Part shown: piece after piece, positions 46,431 to 51,727 of the stretch
Position numbering within the stretch: position 1 is the first letter of the stretch
How the letters are laid out: each line of letters begins with the position of its first letter
Assembly (NCBI RefSeq): GCF_003790525.1
Contig: NZ_CP033635.1
Length of the DNA: 64,000 nt
Source: Escherichia coli
GTDB taxonomy: Bacteria > Pseudomonadota > Gammaproteobacteria > Enterobacterales > Enterobacteriaceae
Direction: 5' to 3' (one strand)
Program-made: the position numbers and the translations under genes
Notes under the pieces: generated by a model
Databases searched by the model: none
The model's input: the letters and a program-made list of their open reading frames with translations, nothing else
What the model was told of the DNA's origin: nothing

Positions 46431-48569
46431 ATGACACCGCATGTGATGAAACGAGACGGCTGCAAAGTGCCGTTTAAATCAGAGCGCATCAAAGAAGCGA
46501 TTCTGCGTGCAGCTAAAGCAGCGGAAGTCGATGATGCCGATTATTGCGCCACTGTTGCTGCGGTTGTCAGCGAGCAGATGCAGGGCCGCAACCAGGTGGA
46601 TATCAATGAGATCCAGACCGCAGTTGAAAACCAGCTGATGTCGGGGCCATACAAACAACTGGCTCGTGCTTACATCGAGTACCGTCACGATCGCGACATT
46701 GAACGTGAAAAACGCGGTCGCCTGAACCAGGAGATCCGTGGTCTGGTCGAGCAGACCAACTCCTCGTTACTCAACGAAAACGCCAACAAAGACAGCAAGG
46801 TGATTCCAACCCAGCGCGACCTGCTGGCCGGGATCGTGGCTAAACACTATGCACGCCAGCACTTGCTGCCGCGTGACGTGGTGCAGGCACATGAGCGTGG
46901 CGATATTCACTATCACGATCTCGATTACTCGCCGTTCTTCCCGATGTTCAACTGCATGTTGATCGACCTGAAAGGCATGCTGACCCAGGGCTTTAAGATG
47001 GGGAACGCCGAGATTGAACCGCCGAAGTCGATCTCTACGGCAACCGCGGTAACTGCGCAGATTATTGCTCAGGTCGCCAGCCATATTTATGGCGGCACCA
47101 CCATTAACCGTATCGATGAAGTGCTGGCACCGTTTGTCACCGCCAGCTACAACAAACATCGCAAGACCGCGGAAGAGTGGAACATCCCGGACGCCGAAGG
47201 CTACGCTAACTCTCGTACCATCAAAGAGTGCTACGATGCCTTCCAGTCGCTGGAGTACGAAGTAAACACCCTGCATACCGCCAACGGTCAAACGCCGTTT
47301 GTAACCTTTGGTTTTGGTCTGGGCACCAGCTGGGAATCGCGCCTGATTCAGGAATCGATCCTGCGTAACCGTATCGCAGGCCTCGGTAAAAACCGTAAAA
47401 CGGCGGTGTTCCCGAAACTGGTGTTTGCGATTCGCGATGGCCTGAACCATAAAAAAGGCGATCCGAACTACGACATCAAACAGCTGGCGCTGGAGTGCGC
47501 AAGCAAGCGCATGTATCCGGATATCCTGAACTACGATCAGGTAGTGAAAGTCACCGGTTCGTTTAAAACCCCGATGGGCTGCCGCAGCTTCCTCGGCGTG
47601 TGGGAAAATGAAAACGGCGAGCAGATCCACGATGGTCGTAACAACCTCGGCGTGATCAGCCTGAACCTGCCGCGTATTGCTCTGGAGGCAAAAGGCGATG
47701 AAGCCACCTTCTGGAAGCTGCTGGATGAACGTCTGGTGCTGGCACGTAAGGCGCTGATGACCCGTATCGCTCGTCTCGAAGGCGTGAAAGCGCGCGTAGC
47801 CCCGATCCTCTATATGGAAGGTGCTTGTGGCGTGCGTCTGAATGCTGACGATGATGTTTCTGAAATCTTCAAAAACGGTCGTGCGTCTATTTCGCTGGGT
47901 TACATCGGCATCCACGAAACCATTAACGCGCTGTTTGGCGGCGAGCATGTGTATGACAACGAGCAGCTGCGCGCGAAAGGTATCGCCATTGTTGAACGTC
48001 TGCGTCAGGCGGTGGATCAGTGGAAAGAAGAAACGGGTTACGGTTTTAGCCTTTACAGCACGCCAAGTGAAAACCTGTGCGACCGCTTCTGCCGTCTCGA
48101 TACCGCTGAGTTTGGCGTGGTGCCGGGCGTGACTGATAAAGGTTACTACACCAACAGTTTCCACCTCGATGTGGAGAAGAAGGTGAACCCGTACGACAAG
48201 ATCGACTTTGAAGCGCCTTACCCGCCGCTGGCGAACGGTGGTTTCATTTGCTACGGCGAATATCCAAACATTCAGCACAACCTGAAGGCGCTGGAAGATG
48301 TCTGGGATTACAGCTATCAGCATGTACCGTATTACGGCACCAATACGCCGATTGATGAGTGTTACGAGTGTGGTTTTACCGGTGAGTTTGAGTGCACCAG
48401 TAAAGGCTTCACCTGCCCGAAATGTGGTAACCATGACGCCTCCCGTGTGTCGGTGACTCGCCGCGTGTGCGGATATTTAGGTAGCCCGGATGCGCGTCCG
48501 TTTAACGCTGGTAAGCAGGAAGAAGTTAAGCGCCGCGTTAAACATTTGGGGAATGGGCAGATAGGTTAA
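46431..48569 (+). CDS. nrdD: anaerobic ribonucleoside-triphosphate reductase
   Basis: 712-aa ORF with C-terminal glycyl-radical and Zn-ribbon region. Confidence 0.95.
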   Translation: MTPHVMKRDGCKVPFKSERIKEAILRAAKAAEVDDADYCATVAAVVSEQMQGRNQVDINEIQTAVENQLMSGPYKQLARAYIEYRHDRDIEREKRGRLNQEIRGLVEQTNSSLLNENANKDSKVIPTQRDLLAGIVAKHYARQHLLPRDVVQAHERGDIHYHDLDYSPFFPMFNCMLIDLKGMLTQGFKMGNAEIEPPKSISTATAVTAQIIAQVASHIYGGTTINRIDEVLAPFVTASYNKHRKTAEEWNIPDAEGYANSRTIKECYDAFQSLEYEVNTLHTANGQTPFVTFGFGLGTSWESRLIQESILRNRIAGLGKNRKTAVFPKLVFAIRDGLNHKKGDPNYDIKQLALECASKRMYPDILNYDQVVKVTGSFKTPMGCRSFLGVWENENGEQIHDGRNNLGVISLNLPRIALEAKGDEATFWKLLDERLVLARKALMTRIARLEGVKARVAPILYMEGACGVRLNADDDVSEIFKNGRASISLGYIGIHETINALFGGEHVYDNEQLRAKGIAIVERLRQAVDQWKEETGYGFSLYSTPSENLCDRFCRLDTAEFGVVPGVTDKGYYTNSFHLDVEKKVNPYDKIDFEAPYPPLANGGFICYGEYPNIQHNLKALEDVWDYSYQHVPYYGTNTPIDECYECGFTGEFECTSKGFTCPKCGNHDASRVSVTRRVCGYLGSPDARPFNAGKQEEVKRRVKHLGNGQIG

Positions 48570-48574
48570 TCCTT

Positions 48575-48616
48575 CCCCCTCACCCTAACCCTCTCCCTCA
48601 AGGGAGAGGGGACCGT
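48575..48616. repeat. C-rich palindromic intergenic repeat (second copy)
   Basis: CCCTCACCCTAACCCTCTCCCTCAAGGGAGAGGGGACCG, near-identical to 24935-24972. Confidence 0.6.
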
Positions 48617-48753
48617 TCCGTGCCCCTTCCTGATTCCCGACATAATGAATTGCCTCTGGCCAGTTTTTGTCGTCGCAAGGAGGCAAATGCGTAGCATCGG
48701 GGGACTTCGCCCGTACGCACCAGAGCATTCATGGCGTCAATTGAGAAGCGAAA

Positions 48754-49218
48754 ATGAACTTTCATCAGTACTATCCTGTCGACATCGTCAACGGTCCCGG
48801 CACTCGCTGCACCCTGTTTGTCTCCGGGTGTGTTCATGAATGCCCCGGTTGCTATAACAAAAGCACATGGCGGGTAAATTCCGGTCAGCCATTTACCAAA
48901 GCAATGGAAGACCAGATCATTAACGATCTGAATGACACTCGTATCAAACGCCAGGGGATTTCCCTCTCCGGCGGCGATCCGCTGCATCCGCAAAACGTGC
49001 CGGATATTCTGAAACTGGTACAACGCATCCGCGCCGAGTGTCCGGGTAAAGACATCTGGGTGTGGACAGGCTATAAACTCGACGAACTCAACGCTGCGCA
49101 AATGCAGGTTGTTGATTTGATTAACGTGCTGGTCGACGGCAAATTTATGCAGGATCTAAAAGACCCTTCCCTGATCTGGCGCGGCAGCAGCAATCAGGTG
49201 GTGCATCATTTACGTTAG
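48754..49218 (+). CDS. nrdG: anaerobic RNR activating enzyme
   Basis: 154-aa ORF with radical-SAM cysteine motif. Confidence 0.9.
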   Translation: MNFHQYYPVDIVNGPGTRCTLFVSGCVHECPGCYNKSTWRVNSGQPFTKAMEDQIINDLNDTRIKRQGISLSGGDPLHPQNVPDILKLVQRIRAECPGKDIWVWTGYKLDELNAAQMQVVDLINVLVDGKFMQDLKDPSLIWRGSSNQVVHHLR

Positions 49219-49509
49219 TCACTCATCCAGCCGTTTTGTCGCGTCTTCATAAACGGCTGAGTTTTCTCTCTTACCAATAGCTATCACCAACACGAGTAAC
49301 TCTTTATCATTGACGGAATAGACCAGGCGATATCCCAGTGTGCGCAGCTTAATTTTGTAGCAGTCCGGTAAATCCCGCAGTTTAGCCGATGGATTGCGCG
49401 GCCTTTTCAGCACATCCTCAAGCTTTTTTTTAAATTGTTCCCGGACTGTCACGCCCAGTTTTTGCCACTCTTTCAGCGCCCGCGGATCAAACGCCAGCTC
49501 ATAGTTCAT
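49219..49509 (-). CDS. RelE-family mRNA interferase toxin (96 aa from MNYELAFDPR)
   Basis: Strong resemblance to RelE (ALKEWQKLG, KLRDLPDCYKIKLR, GYRLVY); overlaps the antitoxin stop by 11 bp. Confidence 0.8.
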   Translation of the reverse strand: MNYELAFDPRALKEWQKLGVTVREQFKKKLEDVLKRPRNPSAKLRDLPDCYKIKLRTLGYRLVYSVNDKELLVLVIAIGKRENSAVYEDATKRLDE

Positions 49510-49741
49510 CCAGTCGGACCTTAATGGCCTCTTGTGGGTTGGCCAGTCGTTCCCTGACAGTGCGTAACAAGGCTTCTTCACTATCACTGACAGTGAGCGT
49601 TTTTACCGGCATTCGTCCATTTTCCGCAACGTACTGAAACAGCAGCCGCACTGCTTCAGTAGGCGTAATATTTAATTTTTCCAGCACCGCATAAGCCTCA
49701 TTTTTCAGTTTGTCATCCAGGCGGACGTTAAGTGTGGCCAT
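49499..49741 (-). CDS. RelB-family antitoxin (80 aa)
   Basis: Resembles RelB (LNVRLDDKLK..AYAVLEK); GGAGG SD upstream. Confidence 0.8.
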   Translation of the reverse strand: MATLNVRLDDKLKNEAYAVLEKLNITPTEAVRLLFQYVAENGRMPVKTLTVSDSEEALLRTVRERLANPQEAIKVRLDEL

Positions 49742-49764
49742 TATGCCTCCGGTAATTATGAAAA

Positions 49765-49800
49765 GTGTAATGCATTATAGCATTACATATGCATTACATT
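49765..49800. promoter_or_regulatory. repeated TGCATTA / TAATGCATTA palindromes upstream of the relBE-like operon; candidate autoregulatory operator
   Basis: Perfect palindrome TAATGCATTA plus two further TGCATTAC repeats. Confidence 0.4.
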
Positions 49801-49932
49801 CATTTCTGGAAAACGCCTCGCAAAAATGAGGACGACACGCAGGAATATGCCGTGGTGAAGATAGATATTGCGGTGATTTTACGAAGGGAGAAGAAAGCGT
49901 TGGGCGGTAACGTTTCACCGCCCAATAAGGAA

Positions 49933-50322
<390 letters not shown>

Positions 50323-50374
50323 TCACTTCCTTTTTTATTATGGAGATTTGGCGCGGCAGGTCGCGCCAGTTTTT

Positions 50375-51727
50375 TTACTGCCCGGCGATTTTCATCTCCG
50401 GCAACAGCACTGAACCACACTGTATGTTACTGCGTGTTTCAATATCATTACCAACAGCAACGATATTACGCCACATATCTTTTAAATTACCTGCGATGGT
50501 GATTTCGCTCACCGGATACTGAATTTCGCCATTCTCTACCCAGAAGCCCGCTGCACCACGGGAATAATCACCGGTAATGGCACTCACGCCCTGGCCCATC
50601 AGCTCCGTCACCACCAGCCCGGTGCCCATCTCTTTGAGCATTTGTTCGAAGCTTAGCCCTTGTCCGGCAATCCGCCAGTTGTGAATACCGCCCGCATGTC
50701 CGGTGCTTTTCAGCCCCAGTTTTCGCGCCGAATAGCTGGTCAGCAGCCACTGAGTCAGGATGCCATCTTTGACGATATCGCGGCGCTCGGTGCGCACACC
50801 TTCGCTGTCGAATGGTGTAGATGCCAGCCCTTTCAGCAGATGCGGATGTTCTTCAATAGTCAGCCAGTCCGGCAGAATTTGTTTACCCAGCGAATCCAGC
50901 AAGAAGGTCGATTTACGGTAGACCGCACCACCCGCTATCGCCCCCACCAAATGACCAAACAACCCTGTTGCCACTTCATTGGCAAAAATGACCGGCGCTT
51001 TCATGGTGGAGAGTTTACGCGGTGACAGACGCGATAAAGTGCGGCGAGCACAGTCGGCCCCAACCCACTCTGGCGTTTGTAGATCGCTCATCGCACGCCC
51101 AATGGTGTAGGCATAATCGCGCTCCATATCGCCATTTTCTTCGGCGATTACACAACTGGAGAGCGAATGACGCGTTGAGCAGTAACCCTGCAACATGCCG
51201 TGGCTGTTGCCAAAAACTTTGACACCGTAGTGGCTGTTAAAGCTACCGCCTTCGGTATTGGTGATGCGTTTGTCCGCCTGCAATGCCGCCTGTTCCGCGC
51301 GGGCCGCCAGTTCAATGGCTTCATCCGGGGAAACTTCCGCAGGGTGGAACAAGTCGAGATCCGGTGCGTCAAAGGCCAGCAGCTCTTTGTCTGCCACGCC
51401 GGCACAGGGATCTGGCGAGGTATAACGGGCAATATCCAGCGCCGCCTGTACGGTGCGGGCAATGGCCTGCGGGCTTAAATCGGTAGACGATGCGCTCCCT
51501 TTGCGGTTCTGGTGATAAACAGTGATCCCCAGCGCGCCATCGCTATTGAATTCAACATTCTCCACTTCACCATAACGCGTGCTTACGCTAATGCCGGTGG
51601 TCTTGCTGACGGCAACTTCTGCACCGTCCGATTTGCCTGAGGCCAACTCCAGCGCAGTCGAAACTGCTTCTTCCAGAATCTTGCGCTGCGCTTCAACTTG
51701 AGAGATTACTTTCATTGCAAGTGCCAT
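50375..51727 (-). CDS. pmbA: metalloprotease PmbA (TldE)
   Basis: 450-aa ORF, recognised sequence. Confidence 0.9.

Follow-up and report, generated by a model that had tools for sequence, protein, structure and literature searches.

A probably ancestral relBE-family toxin-antitoxin operon, convergent with nrdG and decaying in Escherichia coli

The RelBE toxin-antitoxin (TA) system of Escherichia coli K-12 is encoded by relBEF (b1564/b1563) in the Qin cryptic prophage, and its operator carries TGTAA-core hexads over the -10 element and transcription start (PMC2812701). The hexad core, [A/T]TGT[A/C]A, was defined experimentally for K-12 RelB at relO (PMC2812701), and the roles of K52/K54, R81 and Y87 in RelE have been described (PMC5027501; for Tyr87 also PMC3507626). 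A second relative is found in Salmonella enterica, where relBE lies directly downstream of, and convergent with, nrdG-nrdD. This module is apparently widespread in Salmonella, with one RelB found in 2,292 assembly-collection blocks and on at least 1,000 contigs, whereas it is rare in E. coli. In S. Typhimurium LT2, the locus tags STM4449 and STM4450 adjoin nrdG. STM4449-STM4450 has been catalogued as a relBE TA module (PMC8708949), and it also appears in PMC3868539, a retracted paper cited here for its list only. A literature search for the E. coli nrdG-cybC relBE module, by accessions, locus and relBE2-type names, found no paper, while the RelBE family, its mechanism, the annotation and the Salmonella orthologue are already known. 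Here we describe the module in a 64,000-nucleotide stretch of the E. coli chromosome (GCF_003790525.1, contig NZ_CP033635.1; hereafter the window), and find that it is very probably a chromosomal relBE-family type II TA operon, orthologous to the nrdG-adjacent relBE of Salmonella and other Enterobacteriaceae, with a K-12-like mechanism and a history of ancestral presence followed by decay. The new details are an A8 run that is repeatedly frameshifted, a toxin deletion of 283 bp between RLDE-coding repeats, and a conserved hairpin with a T-tract in the 3' end of relE.

In the window, nrdG (48754-49218, plus strand) ends in a stop codon at 49216-49218 that is followed at once by the stop codon (49219-49221) of an intact relE-like toxin gene of 96 codons (49219..49509, minus strand, ATG at 49509), the two genes being convergent with no intergenic space. 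The relB-like antitoxin gene (80 aa; 49499..49741, minus strand) is directly 5' of the toxin gene and shares 11 bp with it on the same strand (49499-49509), a frame overlap through which the RelB-encoding and toxin frames are predicted to be translationally coupled. One Shine-Dalgarno sequence (GGAGG, 49746..49750, minus strand, 4 nt 5' of the relB ATG) and one promoter region serve the pair, both upstream of relB, and GGAGGCATAATGGC at the Shine-Dalgarno site is kept in a 10-species alignment except for a single substitution in one sequence. Beyond the promoter region lies cybC (49933-50319, minus strand), and a terminator scan and inverted-repeat search found a cybC terminator-like hairpin (49900..49925, minus strand; 11 pairs, then CGCTTTCTTC) that falls within the presence/absence block described below and is found in the TA-bearing allele only. 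RefSeq labels the pair as RelE family toxin (WP_001105432.1) and RelB/DinJ antitoxin. An Rfam scan of 48500-50500 gave nothing relevant, its sole match being a sub-threshold CRISPR-DR57 in a GC-rich repeat. As in K-12, the antitoxin gene comes first and the frames overlap; unlike the prophage-borne K-12 RelBE, the window module is flanked by core genes at nrdG, has no hokD/relF downstream, encodes a 96-aa toxin ending in RLDE and converges on nrdG without spacing. An earlier note on this DNA had described an 80-aa and 96-aa RelB/RelE-like pair, an 11-bp overlap and abutting stop codons; the coordinates bear out the latter two, and matches in Pfam, NCBIfam and the PDB bear out the first.

BLASTP aligned the toxin to K-12 RelE without gaps (60/94 identical, 64%), and phmmer matched its residues 1-94 to RelE in the PDB (4V7K, 4FXE and 2KC8, E=2e-34 to 1e-32). 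The catalytic and substrate-positioning residues K52, K54, R61 (one of RelE's functional residues), R81 and Y87 are all kept in the window toxin and two other E. coli alleles, as well as in the Salmonella, Cronobacter and Klebsiella-like orthologues. At codon 65 all other RelE sequences compared have Q; the window toxin carries S through a triple change of CAG to TCC, and this S65 allele could be attenuated. The window allele (S65/L58) differs from the majority E. coli allele (Q65/Q58) at 10 nucleotides, 8 of them in synonymous codon changes, with 2 amino acid changes, and the differences fall mostly at relE nucleotides 173-213. A single gene-conversion tract was considered and dropped, as the differences, polarised with E. 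albertii, E. marmotae and E69, are split between both lineages; the CAG to TCC change remains odd nonetheless. The antitoxin matched Pfam RelB (6e-16), the NCBIfam RelB equivalog NF008412 (130 bits, cutoff 96), TIGR02384 (73.8 bits, cutoff 45.65), and in the PDB RelB 4FXE_A (1e-20) and the ribbon-helix-helix domain 2K29 (3e-13). It is 48% identical to K-12 RelB, with the same ribbon-helix-helix N-terminus and C-terminal toxin-binding region, and these matches assign the 80-aa protein to the RelB family with a predicted ribbon-helix-helix DNA-binding domain. No PADLOC-DB anti-phage defence model matched either protein at E<=1e-3.

Upstream of relB, repeat search and cross-genus conservation identified three operator-like copies of TGTAATGC (49764..49799), one on the plus strand at 49766-49773 and two on the minus strand at 49780-49787 and 49791-49798. 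Read on the relBE coding strand, two of the copies are direct, at a distance of 11 nt, and the third is inverted, and the trio brackets a putative extended -10 element, TGCTATAAT (49774..49782, minus strand). ATGCATTA also recurs at 49770-49777 and 49789-49796, and a larger unit, TGTAATGC/GCATTACA, occurs three times in 49766-49798. The window contains 8 matches to TGTAATGC compared to 2.7 expected by chance, and 3 of the 8 are inside one 34-bp stretch. In the 10-species alignment the repeats are near-constant while adjacent bases drift; they differ at a single base, which lies in the distal repeat of an Enterobacter-labelled sequence. Salmonella has them at identical offsets from the ATG (-57, -46 and -32), and Cronobacter and the Klebsiella-like contig show one substitution in some copies. 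The repeats contain the relO hexad core [A/T]TGT[A/C]A and, judged from sequence, overlap the promoter as in K-12, but their spacing differs from that of relO, which consists of two abutting 12-bp palindromic half-sites. Given their conservation from genus to genus and the TGTAA hexad core that they have in common with K-12 relO, the repeats are almost certainly the autoregulatory operator of relBE, as the earlier note had proposed. The TG and hexamer positions 1, 2, 4 and 6 (TA.A.T) of the -10 element are invariant in 10 species; a consensus promoter scan made no call at relBE, where a good -35 is absent. Further upstream, the alignment revealed a conserved element, TTTTTGCGAGGCGTTTTCCAGAA (49804..49826, minus strand), whose TTTTG.GAG and TCCA.A motifs vary little or not at all among the 10 species and which is possibly a UP-like element or a second regulatory site.

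Comparison with other Escherichia revealed three routes of toxin inactivation: frameshift in an A8 homopolymer, insertion of IS100, and a 283-bp microhomology deletion. The A8 run (49424..49431, minus strand, toxin codons K27-K29) is a frameshift hotspot: 1-nt deletions have inactivated the E. marmotae toxin and that of E. albertii/SCPM-O-B-7615, with different substitutions nearby in the two. The 283-bp deletion, found in 61 genomes, removes the toxin between two copies of an 11-nt direct repeat, TCATCCAG(C/T)CG, that encode RLDE at the C-termini of the toxin (copy 1, 49223..49233) and of the antitoxin (copy 2, 49506..49516); a third, related copy is at the relB N-terminus (49713-49723). The left end of the deletion is copy 1, an orphan relB is left behind, and the crossover varies either side of a single mismatch at 49514, suggesting that there were probably at least two independent events. 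Orphan relB is also intact in E. marmotae and strain E69, whereas among the loci examined the antitoxin was lost only together with a frameshifted toxin. E. marmotae retains 97.5% identity to the window in relB and 97.7% in the operator, compared to 91.6-93.3% in flanking genes and 90.4% in the dead toxin, and one E. marmotae/Escherichia relB sequence occurs on 271 contigs.

Such persistence of relB beside a dead or missing toxin would also be expected if the module were a relic, its toxin ineffective (at least in the S65 allele) and selection now maintaining just relB with its operator, for instance because the unit gives anti-addiction immunity to incoming plasmids or prophages that encode RelE, or serves as a domesticated repressor. 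This account draws on the orphan genes of the 61 E. coli genomes, E. marmotae and E69, on the E. marmotae identities and the 271-contig sequence, on the substitution of the otherwise invariant Q65, and on the evolutionary rate of the toxin, which exceeds that of the antitoxin in all species pairs compared. However, the window toxin frame is full length with all its catalytic residues, the differences among E. coli toxin alleles are mostly synonymous, and loss of the antitoxin only beside a frameshifted toxin is the order expected of an active toxin. Orphan antitoxins are moreover a transient stage expected under neutral decay, and low relB divergence could reflect recombination. We consider the relic account unlikely, at roughly one chance in five, and prefer that of a relBE operon with a K-12-like mechanism that has been decaying toxin first.

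The 3' end of relE contains a second candidate signal, identified by repeat search, folding and comparative analysis: a hairpin (49228-49259) followed by a T-rich tract (49260-49272), which together span relE codons 79-94 and are read on the nrdG strand (49228..49272, plus strand). The hairpin has a minimum free energy of -13.2 kcal/mol (z=-3.3), and a consensus structure forms in 13 species, where 4 of its 11 pairs show compensatory changes. The consensus pairs 83.9% of cells, compared to 27-57% with slid partners, and its covariation score is 0.304 versus 0.216 for shuffles (0/500 reach 0.304) and at most 0.164 for slid pairings; the count of covarying pairs alone is not significant (4 versus 2.6, reached by 101/500 shuffles), and the stem is under coding constraint. 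In Citrobacter, Enterobacter and the Klebsiella-like locus, a terminator scanner placed its call at precisely this position on the nrdG strand. The same scanner left the hairpin uncalled in the E. coli window, probably because the 9-nt loop of the minimum-energy fold is just above its 8-nt limit. The hairpin and T-tract look like an intrinsic nrdDG terminator, and this apparent dual use of the relE 3' end would be a minor case of a signal embedded in coding sequence, one that could constrain the loss of genes. More speculatively, and in our view improbably, relBE and nrdDG may be entangled physically, and perhaps regulatorily, across Enterobacteriaceae, with the codons of the RelE C-terminal helix serving as a Rho-independent nrdDG terminator in an antisense 3' overlap and the relB-operator portion perhaps selected alone after the toxin's death. 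If so, anaerobic (FNR-driven) nrdDG transcription could shift the RelE:RelB ratio, and entanglement would explain both the module's lasting tie to nrdG and the need for a replacement hairpin when it was lost from E. coli.

Among 5,426 complete E. coli genomes, toxin DNA is present in 393 (7%), the antitoxin only in 61, and neither in about 4,970, making relBE a minority accessory feature of the species, although the exact window proteins are present on thousands of public contigs. Named carriers belong to phylogroups F (IAI39, CE10), E (O145:H28) and D (O102:H6/ST405, O153:H30/ST38). Just 44 nt separate cybC from nrdG in K-12 MG1655 and JM109, and no TA module lies there, as the earlier note had expected for K-12. 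Alignment of carrier and empty alleles delimits a presence/absence block of 709 nt (49215..49923), and the nrdG-cybC interval measures 1351 nt in carriers as against 681 nt in empty genomes. In place of the block, the empty allele has 38 nt of other sequence, which folds into another hairpin (-19.5 kcal/mol, z=-4.5). A relB remnant was considered as the source of this filler, but MAFFT gave about 16/24 matches to a relB stretch, which we took as a forced alignment.

Outside E. coli, the module is consistently tied to nrdG. The arrangement relB-relE><nrdG-nrdD is found in 9 species representatives plus Salmonella, Cronobacter and one Klebsiella-like contig, giving tail-to-tail relBE/nrdG in six or more genera besides Escherichia (Salmonella, Citrobacter, Enterobacter, Kosakonia, Cronobacter and the Klebsiella-like contig). 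Between the window and Citrobacter/Enterobacter, synonymous divergence (pS) is 0.57-0.64 for relB and 0.53-0.64 for nrdG, while relE is far more diverged than relB between genera, with saturated pS and 61-72% amino acid identity. The Salmonella module is at the same site and has an 84% identical RelB, the same operator offsets and catalytic residues and the hairpin in the relE 3' end, but its RelE is 68% identical and 94 aa long, and its other flank carries genes for a PRD/PTS-EIIA regulator and a KDGP-aldolase instead of cybC-pmbA. Within Escherichia, a relE remnant at the nrdG-cybC site of E. albertii is 93.9% identical to the window, compared to 92.7% for nrdG, 90.7% for cybC and 92.0% for pmbA; E. 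marmotae has the order cybC-relB-[dead relE]-nrdG, and an E. fergusonii protein falls in the same 90% relB cluster.

The earlier note had called the module a small accessory insertion. Its accessory status stands, but the sequence comparisons speak against insertion, and the scars that the note proposed to look for are absent: the block ends (49215 and 49923) showed neither repeats, whether direct, inverted or terminal, nor a target-site duplication, no mobility genes were found flanking the block, and the empty allele is a replacement and not a clean site. Plasmid modules of the RelE/StbE type (Edwardsiella, Plesiomonas, Aeromonas, E. coli Nissle pMUT-type and others) are members of this family with a RelB/DinJ partner, and tblastn of the toxin against PLSDB returned thousands of such homologues; the best true plasmid matches were 64-66% identical, the sole 97.9% match being a 4.9-Mb chromosome filed as a plasmid. 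Since the plasmid toxins are no closer to the window toxin than is K-12 RelE, none is a plausible donor. Cross-genus synteny, the equal synonymous divergence of relB and nrdG, the Escherichia remnants, the absence of scars and the absence of a close plasmid relative together indicate that relBE at nrdG is ancestral, has been decaying toxin first and was lost from most E. coli.

A recent horizontal insertion of a small TA cassette into the otherwise core interval between nrdG and cybC in certain E. coli lineages would account for the 7% frequency and the empty K-12 locus, and TA modules are often mobile and found in core intergenic regions (PMC7167474). Such spread between strains by recombination is also consistent with the relB-operator-spacer block, which is 99.6-100% identical within Escherichia although its flanks differ by 2-5%. 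It is much harder to reconcile with a module that is linked to nrdG in other genera and Escherichia species and diverged in step with it, with an E. albertii remnant as diverged as its flanks, with plasmid relatives of no more than 66% identity, with the lack of target-site duplications, terminal repeats and mobility genes, with an empty allele that is a 38-nt hairpin substitution, and with an apparent nrdDG terminator that relE contains in all genera. Recent insertion is largely refuted as the module's origin, and we assign it only a slim chance. Ancestral presence followed by loss nevertheless comes with two qualifications. Low relB-operator divergence within Escherichia fits recent lateral exchange as well, so that vertical descent is not the whole story, and relE may have been replaced by recombination, since the toxins outdiverge relB between genera, which weakens strict relE orthology.

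It is highly improbable that the toxin is a ParE-type gyrase poison and not a RelE-type ribosome-dependent RNase: its best Pfam match is ParE_toxin (PF05016, 2.7e-14), with PF15781 ParE-like_toxin in addition (1.8e-7), but PF05016 models the RelE/ParE superfamily in general, each of the four strong PDB matches (E about 1e-33) is to E. coli RelE, the only other match is weak ('toxin-like protein' 2KHE, 1.3e-6) with no ParE-named chain at E<=1e-3, the 64% identity to RelE extends over the full length and includes the RelE-specific K52, K54, R61, R81 and Y87, and the partner is a RelB equivalog and not ParD, scoring 30.2 bits against the RelB_ParD subfamily model (cutoff 60). The toxin also passes NCBIfam TIGR02385 RelE_StbE marginally (28.0 bits, cutoff 27.9), and its sequence and fold matches and its residues point to a RelE-type member of the RelE/ParE superfamily.

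By homology to K-12 RelBE, we propose that the extended -10 TGCTATAAT drives a relB-relE transcript with overlapping frames, and that RelB dimers, bound through their ribbon-helix-helix to the three TGTAATGC repeats astride the -10, would repress it with RelE as co-repressor under conditional cooperativity. RelE would be neutralised by the RelB C-terminus wrapped around it, and upon depletion of labile RelB it would enter the ribosomal A site and cleave mRNA via K52/K54, R61, R81 and Y87. Toxicity, neutralisation, DNA binding and termination are all functions assigned to the nrdG-adjacent module by homology. The tail-to-tail pairing of the operon with nrdG very probably predates the split of the enterobacterial genera, and the last ~16 relE codons apparently double as a terminator for nrdDG when read on the other strand. 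Within Escherichia the operon is decaying toxin first, through A8 frameshifts, IS100 and the recurrent 283-bp deletion, which leaves orphan relB, and most E. coli, including K-12, carry the replacement allele with its 38-nt hairpin.

As a TA module per se, the nrdG-adjacent relBE adds little to the systems already described. Its value lies in a natural series of chromosomal TA ageing, from the intact operon through three inactivation routes and the orphan antitoxin to the replacement allele, and in correcting the reflex reading of strain-variable TA modules as insertions. Polymorphic TA modules in core intergenic regions are known from ccdO157 in folA-apaH and mazEF in relA-mazG (PMC7167474), and the nrdG locus likewise has a small TA operon between core genes that is elsewhere swapped for an unrelated short sequence. 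Unlike at ccdO157 and mazEF, the evidence at nrdG points to ancestral presence and loss, and one end of the module is apparently entangled with the neighbouring operon.

The genes nrdG (48754-49218, + strand) and cybC (49933-50319, - strand) flank two minus-strand ORFs, an 80-aa antitoxin (49499-49741) and a 96-aa toxin (49219-49509), that overlap by 11 bp, and the nrdG stop (49216-49218) is followed directly by the toxin stop (49219-49221). On re-reading the sequence, we found the earlier note's description of this pair, its overlap, the abutting stops and the upstream repeats to be accurate, and family models, solved structures and RefSeq names agree with its identification of a RelBE-like toxin-antitoxin module. 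The toxin aligns without gaps to the solved E. coli RelE (4V7K/4FXE, E=2e-34), with 60 of 94 residues identical, and retains K52, K54, R81, Y87 and R61, the last of which also has a role in RelE. What K52/K54, R81 and Y87 contribute to catalysis has been summarised (PMC5027501), for Tyr87 also elsewhere (PMC3507626). The toxin's top Pfam match is ParE_toxin, a label not at odds with RelE because the model spans the entire RelE/ParE superfamily, and it barely passes the NCBIfam RelE_StbE model (28.0 bits versus a cutoff of 27.9). The 80-aa protein passes the NCBIfam RelB equivalog model (130 bits versus 96), matches solved RelB, including its isolated ribbon-helix-helix domain, and is 48% identical to K-12 RelB. 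RefSeq already annotates the pair as RelE toxin and RelB/DinJ antitoxin, and each exact protein is found on 1,000 or more public contigs with RelE or RelB/DinJ-type names.

Among 5,426 complete E. coli genomes, Megablast located the nrdG-cybC interval in all but one, with a length of 681 nt in most genomes versus 1,351 nt with the module. Toxin DNA is present in 393 genomes (7.2%) and the antitoxin with its upstream region in 454 (8.4%); 61 genomes (1.1%) carry only the antitoxin, abutting nrdG, and about 4,970 are empty, including K-12 MG1655, JM109, ST131, O157:H7, BL21 and O104:H4. The earlier note's statement that K-12 has no toxin-antitoxin module at this position is thereby borne out, and the module is likewise missing from most strains. 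In the empty allele, a 709-nt block (49215-49923), reaching from the last two nrdG codons (TTACGTTAG versus TTGCGATGA) to ~10 nt past the cybC stop, is swapped for an unrelated 38-nt sequence that forms a strong hairpin (-19.5 kcal/mol, z=-4.5), and there is no clean excision site. Neighboring segments also vary. The cybC-pmbA spacer (50320-50374) measures 55 nt in both the window and ST131 but ~180 nt in K-12, O145, GF4-3 and IAI39 (2313-2488 in compared locus L095), and cybC, intact at 128 aa in the window, is annotated as a pseudogene in K-12 MG1655. The nrdD-nrdG spacer (48570-48753), GC-rich and repeat-containing (CCCTCTCCCTCAAGGGAGAGGG...), has matches in just two of the compared genomes, KTa008 and E69, and is thus also polymorphic; a sub-threshold Rfam CRISPR-DR57 match within it (19.7 bits versus 39) is almost certainly spurious.

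An accessory insertion into a core interval, as the earlier note had proposed, would account for this patchy presence, and it is here that the note's reading is not supported, while its observations, RelBE-like identity and K-12 absence stand. A synteny scan with the toxin as query and one genome per species found relBE directly downstream of and convergent with nrdG in Citrobacter amalonaticus, four Enterobacter-labelled genomes, three Kosakonia species and one MAG. The antitoxin has homologues at 81-91% identity in Salmonella enterica, Citrobacter, Trabulsiella, Enterobacter, Cronobacter, Kluyvera, Klebsiella huaxiensis and Kosakonia. The order relB-relE><nrdG-nrdD recurs, with stop-to-stop gaps of 3-8 nt, in the contexts checked in Salmonella, Cronobacter and a Klebsiella-like contig, although the other flank there is a PRD/PTS regulator rather than the window's cybC; in Salmonella Typhimurium, STM4449-STM4450 presumably adjoin nrdG. 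Synonymous divergence of relB from Citrobacter and Enterobacter (proportion of differences 0.57-0.64) equals that of nrdG (0.53-0.64). In E. albertii a decayed copy occupies the same nrdG-cybC site, with a relE remnant (93.9% identical to the window) that has diverged like nrdG (92.7%), nrdD (93.1%), cybC (90.7%) and pmbA (92.0%); E. marmotae has the order cybC-relB-[dead relE]-nrdG, and an E. fergusonii-named protein falls in the same relB cluster. The block ends carry neither direct nor inverted repeats, and no PLSDB plasmid toxin is closer than 66%. The sole near-identical 'plasmid' match to the toxin, NZ_CP134663.1 (H111), is a 4.9-Mb record that is evidently an E. coli chromosome filed as a plasmid. 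Synteny in other genera, divergence, the Escherichia remnants and the lack of end repeats are best read as marking relBE as an old resident of the nrdDG 3' end that most E. coli have lost.

Decay of the module is seen toxin first. A 1-nt deletion in an A8 run (49424-49431) frameshifts the toxin in E. marmotae, E. albertii and the albertii-like "E. coli" SCPM-O-B-7615, and the differing substitutions beside it suggest that the E. marmotae and E. albertii frameshifts arose independently. SCPM-O-B-7615 (NZ_CP144926.1) shares segment identities to the window (nrdG 92.5%, cybC 90.7%) and decay state with E. albertii NBRC 107761, and may either be an E. albertii with the wrong label or carry an albertii-derived segment. 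In strain E69 the toxin has lost its C-terminus, including Y87, through a 2-nt deletion, and an O158:H23 strain has IS100 inside the toxin gene. All 61 orphan-antitoxin genomes, which include the O145:H28 lineage, IAI39 and CE10, show a deletion of exactly 283 bp between two copies of TCATCCAG(C/T)CG (49223-49233 and 49506-49516), a repeat that exists because toxin and antitoxin both end in ...RLDE. In the four orphan genomes compared, the crossover falls before the single mismatch in some and after it in others, and both spacer haplotypes carry the allele; all four combinations occur, implying at least two independent 283-bp deletions or later recombination. Among the loci examined, antitoxin damage appears only alongside a frameshifted toxin, as an active toxin would lead one to expect. 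A second direct repeat of 19 nt (49506-49524 and 49713-49731, 89% identical, 207 nt apart) encodes the RelB N-terminal LNVRLDD and C-terminal IKVRLDE; recombination between its copies would remove most of relB in frame, and no allele deleted between them was seen.

The two genes have also diverged unevenly. For all syntenic-clade pairs, the toxin has changed faster than the antitoxin (72% identity for RelE versus 91% for RelB against Citrobacter), and relE synonymous sites are saturated between genera. Against compared loci L011 and L013, nucleotide identity dips to 0.53-0.60 only in mid-relE (49281-49460), flanked by relB and nrdG at 80-92%, a pattern that might stem from recombination replacing the toxin, or from selection that is diversifying or relaxed. 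In a comparison of the window with loci L005, L007, L010 and L094, the relB-operator-spacer block (49499-49932) is 99.6-100% identical among several E. coli backgrounds plus E69, and E. marmotae relB (97.5%) and promoter/operator (97.7%) exceed their flanks (about 92%), whereas nrdG, nrdD, cybC and pmbA differ by 2-8% across compared Escherichia loci; this low divergence reflects either recent exchange or an unusual constraint persisting after toxin death. The window's own toxin, an allele common at ≥99% to 74 genomes, has L58 (49337) in place of the Q58 of the majority E. coli allele, and S65 through a triple change from CAG to TCC (49315-49317) at a position that is Q in all other RelEs compared; activity of the S65 toxin cannot be assumed.

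Convergence of nrdG and relE leaves no space for terminators between them, and a consensus terminator scan of the window gave no call on the relevant strands. On the nrdG-sense strand, immediately beyond the nrdG stop, the codons for RelE residues about 84-93 form a hairpin (49228-49259, -13.2 kcal/mol, z=-3.3), with a T-rich run (49260-49272) directly after it. The hairpin's 11-pair consensus is kept across 13 species with compensatory changes at four pairs, and 83.9% of cells are paired versus 27-57% with slid partners. The covariation score (0.304) lies above all 500 shuffles and every slid control; the count of covarying pairs by itself is not significant (4 versus 2.6). At the Citrobacter, Enterobacter and Klebsiella-like loci, the scanner reports precisely the hairpin site, on the nrdG strand, and no other terminator-like element within 600 nt; the hairpin is gone from the orphan-relB allele (z=-0.03). 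From the hairpin and T-run, the 13-species conservation and the scanner calls, we propose with moderate confidence that the relE 3' end doubles as a putative nrdDG terminator, which would fit the long co-residence of relBE and nrdDG and would explain the substitute hairpin in the empty allele.

Upstream of relB on the minus strand, GGAGG lies 4 nt before the ATG and is preceded by an extended -10 (a perfect TATAAT after TGC), around which stand three TGTAATGC repeats (49766-49773, 49780-49787 and 49791-49798), two direct on the coding strand 11 nt apart and one inverted. The octamer occurs 8 times in the window versus 2.7 expected, with three copies in this one 34-bp stretch. In an alignment of ten species of Escherichia, Citrobacter, Enterobacter and Kosakonia, all three repeats, the -10 TG and hexamer positions 1, 2, 4 and 6, and GGAGGCATAATGGC show no or almost no change, whereas adjoining positions vary. 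Salmonella has the repeats at the window's offsets from the ATG (-57, -46 and -32), and some copies in Cronobacter and the Klebsiella-like contig differ by one substitution. Such conservation amounts to a strong phylogenetic footprint for an autoregulatory operator, to which RelB would bind. A further element, TTTTTGCGAGGCGTTTTCCAGAA (49804-49826), lies upstream of the repeats, is partly invariant across the 10 species, and offers no good -35 at the correct spacing.

As a system the module is nothing new, since the family is thoroughly known, the genes are annotated and the S. Typhimurium orthologue STM4449-STM4450 is catalogued (PMC3868539, retracted and used for its list only; PMC8708949). 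Its modest interest lies in evolutionary anatomy: the ancestral nrdDG linkage, recurrent toxin-first decay through built-in mutational hotspots, a persistent orphan antitoxin and a probable dual-use terminator. The K-12 relBE operator, relO, consists of two abutting 12-bp half-sites with an [A/T]TGT[A/C]A hexad core that overlap the -10 and transcription start (PMC2812701); the window's repeats have the ATGTAA/GTGTAA core in common with relO but arrange it differently.
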